Source: a virus
Lineage: Duplodnaviria; Heunggongvirae; Uroviricota; Caudoviricetes
Virus record (IMG/VR): IMGVR_UViG_2565956719_000013
Reading direction: 5' to 3' (one strand)
Length of the DNA: 41,123 bases
A program made the position numbers and the translations under genes. Of this stretch, positions 3,398 through 35,554 are shown one piece after another; the stretch's first letter is position 1, and every line of letters starts with the position of its first letter. The notes beneath the pieces are model-generated. The model had not been told where the DNA came from and searched no databases. It was given only the letters and a program-made list of their open reading frames with translations.

Positions 3398-6300
3398 AAC
3401 GTTCTTCCAGAGACTGAACCCGCTCTTTTATCTTATCCATTTCTCTGCGCTGCCATGCTGCCTCGATATAGAATAAGAGATCAGGTCTGACCCCCCATCT
3501 AGATCCTGCTGGCGTTATTTCAACGCGCTCAATGATGTCTTCTATTACCATCACTGGATTATCATCCTCATCAACAATGATGCTCCCGTCATTATCAGTC
3601 AGCGGCATTTCCCTTTGGCCAGTAATGACGTCATCATATACTGCGGGATAATCGTCATAGCAAAGAAAGGCATAGCGGCATGTTGTGCTTTCTTCTTCCA
3701 TGAGTCCGTGAGAAATAAGAACATCACGAAGTTGCTGCGCGATTACACCATGATGTATCCTCGCCCCTTCTTCCCCCTTTATAGCGACAGCGTTCAGCCA
3801 TTTATAAGCGATATACCTGACGTCACCCCAGGCATCCAGCAATGTTTCGTCAGGAGAGACCGGCTCTGTCTTTAATGTTCCGTCACTGGTAACCACAGGA
3901 TTGGAGCCAAGATAAACTATCGAGAACCTGTTTCCCGGACCACCAAGAGCATTTACATTATCAAGATAAGGTTTAACATCTCCGTTCTCAAAAAGATGTT
4001 CGAGTGCGTTATATACCGCGCGACGTGGAGTACTGCTTCTGGAACCATGCAACGTTATCATTGCACCATCTGCTGAAGACGTTGTTTCACCGCCGCTAAC
4101 GATTAATCTCTGAGCGGTAACATCATCAGACGGTACTTTCTTCGCAATAATGGCGTAATTACCCTCAAGTTTGACTTCCGCGCGAACTTGTCCTGATGTA
4201 CCTGCATGGACAGTCAGTGACTGGACGGCAACATCATCTGTGAAATCAACGGGTACAGGAACCGTCCTCACGCCTGACGTCGACATAAAAGTAGGAAGCG
4301 TTCTGTTAGGAGTGGCTCCGTAGACAAAATCCCTTGAAACAAATTCTTCCTGTTTAATTTTCACCCTGAAACAATACAAATCAGCCGGGTGACCATCGTG
4401 AACATAAGGATATTTTCTGTTGTTATCCCCTATGCTCCATGGGTTTAGAAAGTCTTCCCCACCGAAAATGTAGTACAGCCAGTTGTCTTTGATACAAACT
4501 GAACCAACACCAACCGCAGAGTTAACTATTCCGCCCTGATAAATCTGATCAGTAACATTAACCCACTCTACATTATCCAGACTCCACTCATTGACGTTAA
4601 CTCTGGTCATAAATGTTCTTGGATAATTTCCTGCATAACGGTTATCAGGTTCTCCTCCTTCCCACTCACCAAATGCGCGCTCACTGCCAAAAATAATCAG
4701 CTCATCGCCAACTTTGGCAAAAGGAAGGTTTGAGTGATGAACATTATTTGGGAAGCGAAGAGAATTCCATGATGTACCTAAATCAGAGCTTCTGTGCAAT
4801 GAACTACCGGGTTGAGTACTTAATGTCCCCCTGGTCGTCAGATACAGAATGCCATCATAATATTTTACACATGGCTCAGATGCATTCGCCTCATATTCTG
4901 CAGGTATGCGTCTGCGAACAAAGCTACCAGGAGAACCGAAAGCATCAGAGAAATAGAGTATCCCAAGCTCGCGTGGACCAATATCACCATTATGGTAGCC
5001 AACAGCAAAACTGTTATCGCTAATCGTCGCAAAACTGTGAATCTCAGTAACAGGAGTGCTTCCGTCAACAAAAGAAGGAATAGTTCCAAGACTGGTTTTT
5101 CTCCATGGTGACGAGTGAAATGATGTACCAAAACTCCAGTATCTACCCTCGTTATTCTGATCCACATCCTGGGTATTTTGCGTCGTAACTGTAAAAGTAT
5201 TTTTATCAATAACAGTAGTCACCGTCATATTCCCGGTAACACCTGTAACACCAGAGTTTGAGAAGTTGACAAAATCACCAGCAAATAATCCGTGATCAGT
5301 AATGCGAATATAAGCGACTTGCTGATTTGCTGCTTTCGTTATACCACCATAAACGCGAAGGCTGCGACTCATTGGGCGATCCCACAACTCTGCAACCTGC
5401 AGTTTATTTCCGCTCACGGTCCGCGTCTCAATTACAGCAAAAAGGCGATTTCTGACAACCCCCATACTCATGCAGTGATAGTTAACTGTGGGATAGTTTT
5501 CATGTAAATCTGTAAGCCATTCCGGCGTTGTCCAGGTCTTCCCGTCATCTCCTGAGCGAACCCATGCAACATGGAGGTTATTTACACCATGGCGGTCTCC
5601 AGCCATAAAAGGCGCATAGATGACATTGTCATATACAAACGTTTTATCCTGCGTCCAGGCGTTGTACCACGGTGTATCTGTAATTTTAAATAACTCTCCC
5701 TGGATAAAATCTTCAGAAGCATAAAAAAGAGGCTGGCCCGGTATTCTCTCAAATAAAAAACGAGCATTTTTAAATCGACTGACATCCGGAAGAGTTGATA
5801 CTTTAAAAGTAAGCCCTAATCCGTCAATTTTATAACCTGGAGATGAGGCTTCAAGGCACGCGCTTATTGCAGTGGAATCGTCATTTATACCATCACCAAC
5901 AGCTCCAAAATCTTTGGGGCTAATAGCATCACGCATTTTATCCTGGAACGTTCGGTACACAGCCCCAGAACCATACTGAATAAACCAACCAAAACCACCA
6001 ACAACCCCGGCGATTGCAGCATCGACATAATTACGCATTGAGCGATTATTTACAGCGTCCTGCTCAAATGATGGATCTGCAAGGTTAGAAATTTTGTTTT
6101 GCTTTGCATCGTAATATTTTGCAAGCAAAGATGGTTTCATCAATGCACGTCTGAACCACCCAAAACATTGCTGGATCAGCATCGTCAGGTAGTCAAAGGC
6201 ATCTTCATGCACTTCGGGGAAAAATTTTCCCTGATTGCGAAGGTCTGTCTCCTGCACTACATCAAGCACACGATCTATCGTAATTCGCCATCCAGTAGCA

Positions 6301-6710: not shown

Positions 6711-6968
6711 ATGCAGCAGTATCACTATCCACTGGAAGACGGATTTACCGAAAGGATTCACACGCCGGGAGGCGTCAGGTCACTGGTGGAGGGATCGCAC
6801 TTGATGAAATTACTCCGGGATCTCGATAAGGATGGATTTAATGTCGATGGCCCACTTGCCGAACTGACTGCACTGATTAACTACGTCACCAGCTCACAGA
6901 TGTCTATGCAGGATCTGCAAACACATCTCGACTATTGTGCCGAACAATTACGAAAACAAACCAGATAA
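6711..6968 (+). CDS. SOS-regulated small protein, paralog of antirepressor C-terminal domain (candidate antirepressor)
   Basis: GGAGAAG RBS; 85 aa; ~35-40% identical by eye to C-terminal ~80 aa of the 7284..7994 product (shared GV, LM-LL, DG, AELT, QTH positions). Confidence 0.6.
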   Translation: MQQYHYPLEDGFTERIHTPGGVRSLVEGSHLMKLLRDLDKDGFNVDGPLAELTALINYVTSSQMSMQDLQTHLDYCAEQLRKQTR

Positions 6969-6999: not shown

Positions 7000-7014
7000 T
7001 TACCTTTGCGGTAA
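7000..7014. promoter_or_regulatory. operator-like dyad TTACC-N5-GGTAA
   Basis: TTTACCtttgcGGTAAA, perfect dyad upstream of antirepressor leader. Confidence 0.55.
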
Positions 7015-7104
7015 ATTTACATCGCACTCCTCTTGTGCCATAGTAATCGGGCACTGGCAAAATCCAGTGCCGGGATTGGCGTCCCGGGTTACTAAGTGGC
7101 GCAT

Positions 7105-7127
7105 ACCACGCCAGACGTGGTTTTTTT
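7105..7127 (+). terminator. intrinsic terminator/attenuator in antirepressor leader
   Basis: stem ACCACG (7105-7110) / CGTGGT (7116-7121), loop CCAGA, T7 tract to 7127. Confidence 0.55.
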
Positions 7128-7283
7128 ATGCGTTAAGCACAGCTATATCCGAATTATGGTGGGCTGGGCAGGGGTCCGAAAGGACGCCGGTACCACTTAG
7201 GCCGGTACGCCAACCTTGTCCAGTTCACCACCAGTAATTGGCGTTGCGGTGGTGATTAAAATCACTAAGTGGAGATAACCACC

Positions 7284-7994
7284 ATGGCTAATGCTCAAAC
7301 TGCCATCTTCAAATTTGAATCTGTTAACCCTATCCGTTCCATCATTATCGATGGCCAACCATGGTTTGTAGCCCAAGACGTTTGTAGTGCGCTGCGTATC
7401 CAAAACGTCACCCAAGCACTTGAAAAACTGGATGATGATGAAAGGTCTATGTTCAACATAGGGCATGAACATCGTGCAATTTTTGACAGCCGAGTAAAAG
7501 AGATCAACATTATCTCCGAGTCAGGCCTCTACACACTGATCCTCCGCTGCCGCGACGCAGTGACACCAGGCACTATCCCCTACCGCTTTCGTAAATGGGT
7601 TACAGGTGAGGTTCTTCCTCAGATCCGCCGCACCGGAAGTTACATTAAAAACTCGCTCCCGCAGGAAGAACGCATAAAGATGGTTGCCGACCAGGTAGCC
7701 AACGCCACGGCGTCAGCAGTAATGCAGGCGATGAAGATAGAGAACAAAACCTACAGTGCCCCACTGAAGCCCGGCTACCGTAGCCTGATTCATTCGCCGT
7801 CTGGTGTTCTCGGCCTGACGGAGAACTCACTGCTGATGAATCTGCTGAACCAGTTACAGGACGACGGGCACGACGTATCGGGCGCGGCGGCGGAGCTGAC
7901 CACCATGTTCTGCTACATCGTCGGTGTGAGCAAATGCCTGCGTGATATCCAGACCCACGCGGAGTACATCAACGACAAGGCAGGGTTCTTCTGA
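7284..7994 (+). CDS. antirepressor with N-terminal Bro-N domain
   Basis: ATG 7284 with AAGTGGAG RBS; N-terminus FKFESVNPIRSIIIDGQPWFVAQDVCSAL matches Bro-N pattern; C-terminal domain paralogous to 6711..6968 product. Confidence 0.7.
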   Translation: MANAQTAIFKFESVNPIRSIIIDGQPWFVAQDVCSALRIQNVTQALEKLDDDERSMFNIGHEHRAIFDSRVKEINIISESGLYTLILRCRDAVTPGTIPYRFRKWVTGEVLPQIRRTGSYIKNSLPQEERIKMVADQVANATASAVMQAMKIENKTYSAPLKPGYRSLIHSPSGVLGLTENSLLMNLLNQLQDDGHDVSGAAAELTTMFCYIVGVSKCLRDIQTHAEYINDKAGFF

Positions 7995-8065
7995 CGGCGG
8001 CGGCACAGGGACGTGCCTTTAAATAATTCTGTACAGATTGCAGACTGGGGGTGAATAGCGTACTA

Positions 8066-8080
8066 TTACCTCAAGGGTAA
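8066..8080. promoter_or_regulatory. operator-like dyad TTACC-N5-GGTAA
   Basis: ATTACCtcaagGGTAAG, perfect dyad ~60 bp upstream of ATG 8140. Confidence 0.55.
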
Positions 8081-8139
8081 GAAAGCATTTTTAATCTTCC
8101 CTTCAAAACGCGTCCTGTAGCCAAACATGGGAGGACGAA

Positions 8140-8772
8140 ATGAGAACAAATACAACAAGAAAAGCGATGCCATACATTATCCCAGAAGCAGATTTCGATA
8201 GAAAACTGAACATGTCTGAGAAGAACACTAGTCACACCGAAAGCTACTTAGCGAAAGGTGTGGTTGATTTCGTTCTTCCGGGATTCACAACACCTTATGG
8301 TTATCGCCTTGTAAAATCTTGTAATGGCGATCATTACAGAATGATTACTACCAGCGATACTCCAGAAACGGTGTATGCGGTTAAGTTAATCTTTCGGGAA
8401 GATATCGTCGAAGCCAAAAGAACATGTACGCAGATCATGGTATGGCGTACGCCTAATGTTATTCATGACCGTGCTGTTCATGGTTTGCCTCAGATTTTTT
8501 TTCAGTTCTTCCTAGAGCAATATGCGATCGTTGTATCTGATGAGCAACAAACAATCGATGGGAGAAGATTCTGGGAAAGAATGATTTCTTGGGCTATAAA
8601 CACCCCGGGATATAATGTATACGTTTCAGATGGCTCTGAAGAAGATAGACCTCTTAGCTTCATGACATCATGGGATGATTTCTATAGCCAGTGGGCTGAT
8701 TTCTGTTGGGGCAGTGATAAAGATGTGCATACCCACAGACTACTGGTTATAAGCAAAGATAAACTGCATTAA
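8140..8772 (+). CDS. hypothetical protein, 210 aa, orphan accessory gene
   Basis: GGGAGGA RBS; own upstream dyad and downstream terminator; no motif recognised. Confidence 0.65.
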   Translation: MRTNTTRKAMPYIIPEADFDRKLNMSEKNTSHTESYLAKGVVDFVLPGFTTPYGYRLVKSCNGDHYRMITTSDTPETVYAVKLIFREDIVEAKRTCTQIMVWRTPNVIHDRAVHGLPQIFFQFFLEQYAIVVSDEQQTIDGRRFWERMISWAINTPGYNVYVSDGSEEDRPLSFMTSWDDFYSQWADFCWGSDKDVHTHRLLVISKDKLH

Positions 8773-8777
8773 TAGAA

Positions 8778-8798
8778 GCCCGCAGCGCGGGCTTTTTT
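8778..8798 (+). terminator. intrinsic terminator
   Basis: GCCCGC-AGC-GCGGGC hairpin followed by T6. Confidence 0.7.
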
Positions 8799-8870
8799 GT
8801 GGACGAAACAAAAGTCAGTGCTACACTCATTGACGCCACATTGAGGTGGCTTATAGATGGAAATGTCACA

Positions 8871-9032
8871 ATGAAAAAAGCATTTGCTGCACTGTTCGTT
8901 TTGTTGTCTCTGGTAGCTTCAACTCAGGCCTTTGCCGGTCGTTGTCAGCACGACAGCGATACCGCCGCTGACGGCTCCCGCTGCGGTGGGCGTTCTGCGG
9001 ATTCCCGCCCGGGCGGCGGTGGCATTCGTTAA
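8871..9032 (+). CDS. small secreted Cys/Gly-rich peptide, hypothetical
   Basis: ATG 8871; signal peptide MKKAFAALFVLLSLVASTQAFA; 53 aa; weak RBS. Confidence 0.3.
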   Translation: MKKAFAALFVLLSLVASTQAFAGRCQHDSDTAADGSRCGGRSADSRPGGGGIR

Positions 9033-9054
9033 AAACAAGGCCGCGAAAGCGGCC
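9031..9054 (-). terminator. intrinsic terminator ending the leftward late operon
   Basis: GGCCGC-GAAA-GCGGCC hairpin (9039-9054) with T-tract in minus orientation (A5 at 9031-9035 on + strand). Confidence 0.5.
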
Positions 9055-9055
9055 T

Positions 9056-9067
9056 GTGACATGTCAC
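9056..9067. repeat. 12-bp palindrome GTGACATGTCAC (copy 2)
   Basis: perfect palindrome overlapping TGA stop (9064-9066) of 9064..9360, 1 bp from terminator hairpin. Confidence 0.9.
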
Positions 9068-9360
9068 GTTCCTTTTCTGAATGATAGCCGTTCGAAAAAT
9101 GATGACATTCCACCGCAGACAATAGCAAAGATGATCCCACCAAAGAAGAGAAGGCCAGCCTGCCACCACTCCCACCGCCATACATCCACAGCACCAACCA
9201 TACCAACAATCGCTCCAACAAATGGAATATAGCTCACGATGAAAGCAATGGGGGCTGCAATTATCCAGTGCAATCCCCACCATGATTCAAGCCCAGCCAT
9301 AATTGCTGCCAACTGAAAAAGGCCAACGACGATATAAACAATGAATCCTATCGCTTGCAT
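9064..9360 (-). CDS. small multi-pass membrane protein, hypothetical
   Basis: AGGTGA RBS; 98 aa, 3-4 hydrophobic helices, Trp-rich; last gene of late operon. Confidence 0.55.
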   Translation of the reverse strand: MQAIGFIVYIVVGLFQLAAIMAGLESWWGLHWIIAAPIAFIVSYIPFVGAIVGMVGAVDVWRWEWWQAGLLFFGGIIFAIVCGGMSSFFERLSFRKGT

Positions 9361-34584: not shown

Positions 34585-34815
34585 TCATGAGTAGAAGAAG
34601 TATGCCAGTTCTGCTTTTGAGCGCAGCCATTGTCTTGTTTTACAGGCTTTAAAAAGCCCATTCATCAATACTTTACCTGGCATTTTGCGCTTACCTGTTA
34701 AGTGAGTCTGGATATAGTGACTCGTCGTTCCGGCTTCCTGTGCGAAGGCTTCACGCTCATCCGGAGTAAGTGCAAGCCAGTGCTTTTTGAAATCGAAATG
34801 TCCGTTATCGCTCAT
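34585..34815 (-). CDS. Cro-like small DNA-binding regulator
   Basis: 76 aa; HTH-like EREAFAQEAGTTSHYIQTHL; divergent from CI-like gene; transcribed toward replication genes. Confidence 0.55.
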   Translation of the reverse strand: MSDNGHFDFKKHWLALTPDEREAFAQEAGTTSHYIQTHLTGKRKMPGKVLMNGLFKACKTRQWLRSKAELAYFFYS

Positions 34816-34969: not shown

Positions 34970-35554
34970 ATGAAAAGTATCCAGGACGTCCGCAGGCAAA
35001 ATCTCAACGACTTGATCGACCGTGAATTCAATGGTGTTCAGACGCGGATGGCAGAAAAACTTGGAACTCAGGCAAATCTGGTAAACCGCTGGGCTCTTGG
35101 CAAGAAGGTTATCGGCGACCAGGTTGCGCGAAAAATTGAAGCTGCCGCCAATAAACCCCGTAACTGGCTTGATATTGATCGCTCGCTTTCTCAGGAGGGT
35201 TTTCAGCCTGTCGGCCCGAGCGATATAGGTCAGCTGGCGGCTCACAACCTGGAACGCTGGATGAGCGAAAGCCGCGACCTTTCAACGCAGGGAAAACTAC
35301 ACCGCGCATCCGGCGTCGCCCAGGTGACAATCAGCCGCCTGTTAAACAATGAGGTCAGCGTTTCCATTTCCACCCTGGAGAATGTTGCATCCGCATTCGG
35401 GCGTCACGGCTATGAACTACTGATTCACCCGCACGACCCTGCGACTATCAACTATGACCGCTCACGCTACGCATTGTTACCCGAAACCGAGAAAGCAAAG
35501 ATCGAAAGTTACATTGAATTTGTCATCAACCAGAACGAAAAAAACAAACAATAA
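34970..35554 (+). CDS. CI-like repressor with two HTH domains, no S24 peptidase domain
   Basis: 194 aa; HTH-like segments QTRMAEKLGTQANLVNRW and SGVAQVTISRLLNNEVSVSISTLENVASAF; no Ser-Lys protease region; poor RBS; 7-codon upstream mini-ORF ends in ATGA at the start. Confidence 0.65.
   Translation: MKSIQDVRRQNLNDLIDREFNGVQTRMAEKLGTQANLVNRWALGKKVIGDQVARKIEAAANKPRNWLDIDRSLSQEGFQPVGPSDIGQLAAHNLERWMSESRDLSTQGKLHRASGVAQVTISRLLNNEVSVSISTLENVASAFGRHGYELLIHPHDPATINYDRSRYALLPETEKAKIESYIEFVINQNEKNKQ

Follow-up and report, generated by a model that had tools for sequence, protein, structure and literature searches.

A swappable accessory-gene cassette behind a putative repressor operator in a phiV10-like prophage of Escherichia coli, with a cargo protein of predicted GNAT-like fold

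Positions 8066–9032 of a 41,123-nt stretch of viral DNA (IMG/VR record IMGVR_UViG_2565956719_000013; "the window" is this whole stretch, and coordinates count from its first letter) hold a gene for a 210-aa soluble protein (8140–8772, plus strand, ATG start) and, behind it, a gene for a small secreted peptide. Its sequence marks the window as an E. coli prophage of the phiV10/epsilon15 type (Uetakevirus): 8000–9100 is 99.5% identical to the partial records of Escherichia phages Phi05_2388 B and Phi05_1999 B, and the flanks of this segment match phiv142-3, TL-2011b, and phiV10. The dyad, the strong ribosome-binding site, the 210-aa open reading frame (ORF), the clean terminator, and the signal-peptide ORF named in an initial annotation of this DNA are all present at the positions claimed for them. 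The 8066–8798 segment is best read as one filling of a swappable gene-cassette slot, with a fixed promoter and operator on the left and a terminator on the right. The cassette and its operator we regard as probable; the whole picture, a repressor-gated early accessory cassette with a soluble effector of the GNAT-like (Gcn5-related N-acetyltransferase-like) kind as its cargo, is held tentatively, at a little under even confidence.

Where does the slot begin and end? When the window is set beside TL-2011b, phiv142-3, enterotoxigenic E. coli H10407, and another three E. coli genomes, the homologous stretch takes in the 3′ end of an antirepressor gene, the promoter, and the operator, is lost immediately past GGTAA (8080), and returns with the terminator stem (~8777). 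The conserved left flank contains a putative σ70 promoter (8038–8066, plus strand; −35 TTGCAG at 8038–8043, a 17-nt spacer, −10 TACTAT at 8061–8066) and, as its last element, an operator-like palindrome, TTACC-N5-GGTAA (8066–8080), which is perfect here (TTACC-TCAAG-GGTAA; TTACCTCAAGGGTAA) and to which a repressor would bind. The next segment (8081–8139, plus strand) is a cargo-specific 5′ leader, unrelated to the other slot variants, with the ribosome-binding site GGAGG at 8130–8134, 5 nt upstream of the ATG. The conserved right flank opens with an intrinsic terminator (~8776–8798, plus strand; a 10-bp stem with its arms placed at 8776–8783 and 8787–8794, three loop nucleotides, then a run of Ts as far as 8798; −16.8 kcal/mol, z = −3.2), and its stem lies directly 3′ of the stop codon of every alternative cargo. 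The operator and terminator that the initial annotation assigned to the gene thus both exist, but they are not the gene's own: the same conserved flanks enclose unrelated cargo genes, and the two elements could serve as recombination anchors for cargo exchange.

The alternative cargos are a 59-aa ORF with a YafO-family toxin, a DUF4760 protein, a 108-aa ORF with a DUF2335 membrane protein, two small ORFs in H10407, and Orf9 and Orf10 of phiv142-3; phiV10 and the O157 strain TT12B lack the slot and have nothing in its place. Among 45 records, evenly spaced among 543 that match, eight have the gene studied here, ten have YafO, four DUF4760, four DUF2335, and about ten other ORFs, the rest being deleted or partial. 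Of 540 E. coli genomes with this region, 93 have the 210-aa gene, and the locus is present in 93 of 5426 complete E. coli genomes. The cargo segment is also poorer in G+C (~41%) than its flanks (51–57%). With bracketing signals, dispensability, and variable carriage all observed, the assignment of 8140–8772 as a moron-like accessory gene is supported, and so is its place in a variable island that separates the tail-fiber/tailspike gene from the late operon; the proposed island position agrees with the variable carriage, the low G+C content, and the solo occurrence of homologs. Lambdoid morons are reportedly single genes bracketed by a promoter and a terminator, with an atypical G+C content. 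The cassette is like them in being a bracketed single gene of atypical G+C content that is present or absent in close relatives and lies between functional modules. It differs from classical morons, which are expressed from a repressed prophage, in having a phage operator at its promoter, and also in that the flanks stay constant while the cargo changes.

The cargo is found well beyond this slot. Homologs occur as solo genes in four phage architectures, often in the orientation opposite to that of their neighbors, and the copies in the window, in the lambdoid phage LLS, in Serratia prophages, and in P1-like elements each have a strong ribosome-binding site and a downstream terminator. In LLS, a homolog with 84% identity is the last gene, after the lysis cassette, and its upstream region keeps GTACTATTACC-N5-GGTAA; because this is the sole perfect copy of the motif in the LLS genome, promoter and operator must have travelled with the gene. 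In Serratia siphovirus-like prophages, the homolog is located between the genes for a DUF6246 protein and the tape measure, with a P22-type antirepressor and Arc as neighbors; P1-like elements have it between baseplate/tail-fiber genes and an SLT transglycosylase gene.

What would control the slot promoter? With one mismatch allowed, TTACC-N5-GGTAA occurs at 13 sites in the window (6620, 7000, 8066, 25625, 28775, 28793, 32507, 32569, 34515, 34852, 34900, 35612, and 35674), where 0.73 would be expected; a count of 13 was not attained in any shuffle. At most sites, the first T of TTACC is the final base of a −10-like hexamer: site 7000 has TTGAAA-17-TATATT (10/12 in the promoter scanner) and site 35674 has TTGACA-16-TAATTA, the same layout as at 8066. 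Four of the positions single out one gene, that of the 194-aa prophage repressor (34970–35554, plus strand; HTH_3, a helix-turn-helix family, E = 1.2e-9, with a weaker N-terminal YdaS-like match): sites 34852 and 34900 lie between it and a divergent 76-aa ORF (34585–34815), and sites 35612 and 35674 lie just 3′ of it. The 76-aa ORF has no Pfam match and, from its position and sequence, may be cro-like. Since the motif abuts −10 boxes and brackets the repressor gene, we infer that it is the phage-wide operator of the prophage repressor, and the 13 palindromes are likely to map the repressor's regulon. Sites 6620, 7000, and 8066 all fall in the plus-strand accessory island; site 25625 precedes the late region, and further sites are inside the early region. 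Variants of the slot keep both half-sites while the 5-nt spacer drifts (TCAAG, CCAAA, TTAAA, CGATT, TTACG). The epsilon15 genome paper reportedly describes similar operators, ATTACC...GGTAAT. The repressor itself is 100% identical to those of phiV10, phiv142-3, and vB_EcoP_ZX5, and overexpression of the ZX5 protein (ORF21) blocks the lytic cycle, abolishes free phage, and lowers lysis-gene transcripts by more than 99.9% (PMC9782041). Because the phage-wide motif lies at the promoter of the 210-aa gene and the identical ZX5 repressor blocks lysis, this promoter is predicted to be repressed in the lysogen.

The slot follows a second operator-bearing unit on the same strand, a P1-type immI module (7000–7994) that consists of an operator (7000–7014), RNA elements (7038–7235), and a Bro-N antirepressor ORF (7269–7994; Bro-N E = 1e-19; PHROG "anti-repressor Ant"). 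Rfam models of isrK (7051–7127, 67.7 bits) and C4 antisense RNA (7152–7235, 66 bits) score above their gathering scores, and the a1b1 target element (7038–7090, 44.1 bits) falls just below its threshold. In the P1 immI operon, the c4 antisense RNA, icd, and ant are under C1 repressor control. As in P1, C4/isrK-type RNA and a1b1 targets precede the antirepressor, and a repressor-type operator lies at the promoter; unlike in P1, the antirepressor is of the Bro-N type, and the cargo slot is directly downstream on the same strand. We know of no such swappable slot in P1 immI. The island is thus a P1/P7-type immI control module with a swappable slot behind it, in a podovirus prophage. With only a weak hairpin between ant and the slot (z = 0.36), read-through into the slot from the operator-controlled promoter at 7000 is also possible. 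An 85-aa ORF farther upstream (6711–6968, plus strand; PHROG 450) shares homology with the antirepressor's C-terminal part, and both match PHROGs 450, 15539, and 1760; it is a stand-alone copy of the antirepressor C-terminal domain with an operator-bearing upstream region of its own.

What, then, is the cargo? The initial annotation saw an orphan without a recognizable motif, and this view does not hold: PHROG 1349 covers the protein over its entire length (E = 3e-113), and the identical sequence is present on at least 1000 public contigs, annotated as hypothetical every time. A set of 63 close homologs (37–100% identity, ~200–237 aa, most exactly 210 aa) comes from Enterobacterales prophages in Escherichia, Enterobacter, Klebsiella, Serratia, Yersinia, Pectobacterium, Dickeya, Photorhabdus, Xenorhabdus, Providencia, and other genera. 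A profile search of 1.8 billion cluster representatives (clusters at 50% identity) recovers 903 members of the family (E ≤ 1e-3), almost all of them single-domain proteins of ~200 aa. The 63 close homologs, the 903 representatives, and the 13 dyad sites against 0.73 expected argue that the observed features are not due to chance. The protein has no Pfam match at E ≤ 1 and none in NCBIfam, and nothing on the family came up in literature searches by accession, by PHROG number, or by phage GNAT, moron, and anti-defense topics; PHROG 1349 is a large phage family with neither a functional name nor a Pfam model.

Rare fusion proteins occur in the 903-member set (P0151, P0152, P0134, and P0142), each fusion seen once and a hint at most: the partners are an MqsA/YgiT zinc ribbon at the N terminus (E = 3e-20), DUF5397 at the C terminus, and a 300-aa N-terminal extension without assignment, and the N-terminal region of P0134 matches PHROG 15103 and, weakly, SRA/AspBHI-N-like domains (E = 0.002 and 0.075). 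Two family members also occur in tandem, 15 nt apart, on an uncultured phage-like contig (the second copy recognized by hhalign at E = 1e-43); the tandem paralogs span 851–2148 of locus L010 and 4186–5480 of locus L011, and one such paralog adjoins P0063.

The family resembles GNATs in its predicted structure. From its sequence, the protein is soluble (24.6 kDa, isoelectric point ~6, no transmembrane segment), and the structure model (predicted local distance difference test, pLDDT, 79.5; predicted template-modeling score, pTM, 0.77) has a mixed α/β, GNAT-like fold. The best 50 Foldseek matches in the Protein Data Bank (PDB) are all GNATs, and matches in BFVD are uncharacterized phage proteins (E ~1e-10) and NAT_SF proteins. 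The C-terminal half of the model runs β-α-β-α-β (strand 130–132, helix 139–154, strand 159–163, helix 178–189, strand 201–205), and the strongest conservation across the family, D134..Q137-T138..G141..F144-W145, falls at its first strand-to-helix junction. In GNATs, the pyrophosphate of coenzyme A (CoA) is bound at that junction (motif A, the β4-α3 loop). The conserved residues of the family would thus map to the CoA-pyrophosphate site, a correspondence that follows the order of secondary-structure elements, not a residue-level superposition. The predicted fold is like that of the GNAT superfamily (NatD, HAT1, and the C-terminal domain of ICL2/Rv1916), from which the protein differs in that only ~55–60% of it aligns and its N-terminal half is atypical in element order.

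These elements can be assembled into a tentative scheme. Cargo in the slot would be swapped by recombination between the fixed flanks. In the lysogen, the prophage repressor would sit on the operator at 8066–8080 and keep the cassette silent; upon infection or induction, promoters free of repressor would fire, and the cassette and the antirepressor gene would be transcribed together in the first minutes. The GNAT-like product would bind an acyl donor and modify, or at least bind, a component of the host or of a competing element, in a role that would be host takeover or counter-defense rather than lysogenic conversion. That the protein is a catalyst we hold at somewhat less than even confidence, and a counter-defense role in particular is less likely still. 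Lysogenic conversion, exclusion, defense, and anti-defense were the options offered by the initial annotation, the first three of which imply expression in the lysogen; the predicted repression in the lysogen and the early expression favor anti-defense or host takeover among them.

Phage GNAT-type proteins with such roles have precedents. AcrVA5 is a GNAT-fold anti-CRISPR protein of phage origin. Together with Rac and Mom, it illustrates how phage-encoded accessory proteins of this type act on host machinery, phage DNA, or defense proteins. Mom of phage Mu transfers glycine from Gly-tRNA to adenine in DNA and thereby evades restriction (PMC13219725), and Rac of phiKMV-like phages inactivates host transcription via cleavage of the α subunit of RNA polymerase (PMC7552054).

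Several results weigh against this reading. The slot promoter fits the consensus at 7 of 12 positions, below the threshold of the promoter scanner, and would be weak. A YafO toxin-antitoxin-like pair in the same slot sits poorly with a purely early lytic role. The structural matches in the PDB are weak (E ~1e-2, TM-score ~0.3); the GNAT motif A, Q/R-x-x-G-x-G/A, is not kept in the window protein, which reads Q136-Q-T-I-D-G141 and lacks the central Gly; none of 135 family members matches a GNAT Pfam profile at E ≤ 0.01; and hhalign against E. coli RimI finds nothing (probability 0.04). The family consensus at the motif position is D-x-x-Q-T-x-x-G-x-x-F-W, in which the GNAT pattern is only partly present. 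PDB sequence searches with the protein and with two family profiles gave no meaningful match. A relation to Mu Mom was tried and dropped (hhalign probability 0.15, nothing detectable), as was one to T4 Mrh, which had come up through a weak Pfam T4_MRH match in one fusion (probability below 0.2 against both Mrh paralogs). Because no GNAT profile matches, the motif is not kept, and hhalign is null against RimI, Mom, and Mrh, the protein is best filed as GNAT-like in its predicted fold, not as a demonstrated GNAT enzyme. The sensitive profile and structure searches suggested by the initial annotation have thus led to a large unnamed family and a GNAT-like fold, without a GNAT sequence-profile match.

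If the GNAT motif is not kept, need the protein be an enzyme at all? The same cassette, with the same timing, could carry a non-catalytic GNAT-like binder, either an acyl-CoA sensor or a stoichiometric blocker of a host protein. We consider this unlikely, although it deserves more weight than any other alternative: D134, Q137, T138, Q98, R103, and Y79 are nearly invariant across a very divergent family, and near-invariant polar residues are seen more often in an active site than on a surface that binds fast-evolving targets.

The view of the initial annotation, in which the prophage expresses the gene for superinfection exclusion, defense, or lysogenic conversion, draws on the moron-like anatomy, the terminator, and the low G+C content; the variable carriage and the YafO toxin and membrane proteins housed in the same hotspot speak for it too. 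It is nevertheless rather improbable, as the promoter has an operator of the phage-wide type over its −10/+1 region. Furthermore, PADLOC-DB 2.0 has no defense profile that matches the protein at E ≤ 1, and the other slot cargos yield no convincing match (two at E = 0.009–0.04, to Cas8b and a type II methyltransferase, read as chance). Distant family members are also present in the jumbo Burkholderia phage BCSR5 and among BFVD phage proteins, including one of Agrobacterium phage Atu_ph07, phages that may be strictly lytic.

A more ambitious reading would make PHROG 1349 and its ~900 relatives a new branch of phage GNAT-fold enzymes that use an unconventional donor or acceptor (aminoacyl-tRNA as donor; a nucleic acid or a defense protein as target) and travel, promoter and operator included, as early, repressor-gated, mobile counter-defense cassettes; this is a long shot. 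As it stands, the element is an ordinary phage accessory cassette with a member of a large uncharacterized GNAT-like family, without categorical novelty.

A closely related and very unlikely possibility is a Mom-like enzyme, a GNAT fold with a donor other than acetyl-CoA (e.g., aminoacyl-tRNA) that modifies DNA or RNA against restriction. Mu Mom sets a precedent for atypical phage GNATs (PMC13219725), and the N-terminal region of P0134, with its SRA/AspBHI-N-like matches, would suit such a role; yet the SRA-like match is below threshold and, as this domain has no PDB sequence match, the assignment stays weak. Moreover, similarity to Mom is not detectable, an isoelectric point of ~6 comes with no obvious basic surface in the sequence, and there is no Com-like partner ORF nor any small ORF upstream. 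Least likely of all is a GNAT-type toxin akin to AtaT, TacT, or KacT that acts in abortive infection or addiction: KacT and AtaT are among the weak structural matches, YafO occupies the same slot in other prophages, and an MqsA-type zinc-ribbon antitoxin domain is attached to a single distant member, but the cassette, with its 58-nt leader and the terminator directly 3′ of the gene, has no room for an antitoxin-sized ORF, the gene is solo in most contexts examined (LLS, Serratia, P1-like; the exception is the tandem paralog by P0063), and Acetyltransf_1-type profiles do not match.

The leader of the cargo gene has features of its own. Leaders of distant homologs keep a CGTCC...GGAGGACG block: within the last ~35 nt upstream of the ATG, an anti-Shine-Dalgarno block (CGTCC, ACTCC, or TGTCC) can pair with the Shine-Dalgarno sequence (GGAGGACG and variants), as seen in the window (8095–8136) and in loci L003, L006, L012, L039, L041, L044, L046, L053, L056, L057, and L062, whose proteins are homologs of 47–100% identity; such pairing can be drawn in almost every homolog leader. 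Several homolog leaders also have a hairpin and a T-run just 5′ of this block. A leader hairpin that sequesters the Shine-Dalgarno sequence is unsupported, as its pairing is no higher than in shuffled leaders (the fraction of shuffles that reach the observed value is 0.13–0.86). Rfam models find nothing credible in 8000–9100: Trp_leader (19.6 bits against a gathering score of 41) overlaps the terminator, and STnc310 and snoR66 remain below half of their gathering scores.

Behind the cassette, the 53-aa secreted-peptide precursor ORF (8871–9032, plus strand), which the initial annotation described as signal-peptide-bearing and Cys/Gly-rich, is real and conserved. It matches PHROGs 14503 ("membrane associated protein") and 3117 and aligns with 57 homologs from E. 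coli, Shigella, Klebsiella, Citrobacter, Cronobacter, Salmonella, Pectobacterium, and Dickeya, labeled "transmembrane anchored protein" in their sources. Read by eye from the sequence and the alignment, the signal peptide (8871–8936; MKKAFAALFVLLSLVASTQAFA) begins with MKK and continues with a 13-residue hydrophobic core, AFAALFVLLSLVA, then STQAFA/G (the slash marks the predicted cleavage site), with no lipobox; the mature 31-aa peptide (8937–9029) is rich in Cys and Gly and has two Cys residues. Across 20 homologs, position −1 is Ala and position −3 is A, S, or V; the signal part drifts, and the mature part has 16 invariant residues and is almost invariant as C-x12-C followed by G-G-R-S-A-D-S-R-P-G-G. 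All the features of a Sec-exported peptide (n-region, core, small residues at −3 and −1, drifting signal) are present, and the peptide is probably exported to the periplasm, where its two Cys could form a disulfide; because the signal drifts while the mature part is near-invariant, a functional mature part is to be expected.

The peptide gene is a separate unit, conserved across these phages. A putative promoter, TTGACG-16-TATAGA (8830–8857, plus strand), lies 13 nt upstream of its ATG; it is absent from the promoter-scanner list, and no TTACC-N5-GGTAA site is found there. Because its candidate promoter lacks the operator, the peptide gene, unlike the 210-aa gene, may be expressed in the lysogen. 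Loci L020, L023, and L031 (~5634–5700 in each), from prophages that are otherwise identical, have lost by deletion the 5′ half of the peptide ORF with its candidate promoter and signal sequence, so that the cassette terminator runs directly into what is left of the ORF at its 3′ end (…TTTTTTGTG to TCTGCGGATTCC…); the peptide is thus dispensable.

A convergent 98-aa ORF follows (9064–9360, minus strand), with predicted membrane helices, a match to PHROG 3075 (function not named), and a weak holin-family match (E = 0.027). It has a G+C-rich hairpin (9038–9055) in common with the peptide gene. Because its T-run is on the minus strand, this hairpin, annotated as a terminator in phiV10, is mainly the terminator of the 98-aa gene.

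What does the cassette offer? It brings to light a large unnamed family with enzyme-like conservation and a recognizable fold, and the slot analysis yields a regulatory prediction, off in the lysogen and on at induction. Since phiV10-like prophages are common in pathogenic E. coli, the alternative cargos of the slot would make a ready list of genes to be searched for host-takeover or anti-defense activity in these prophages.

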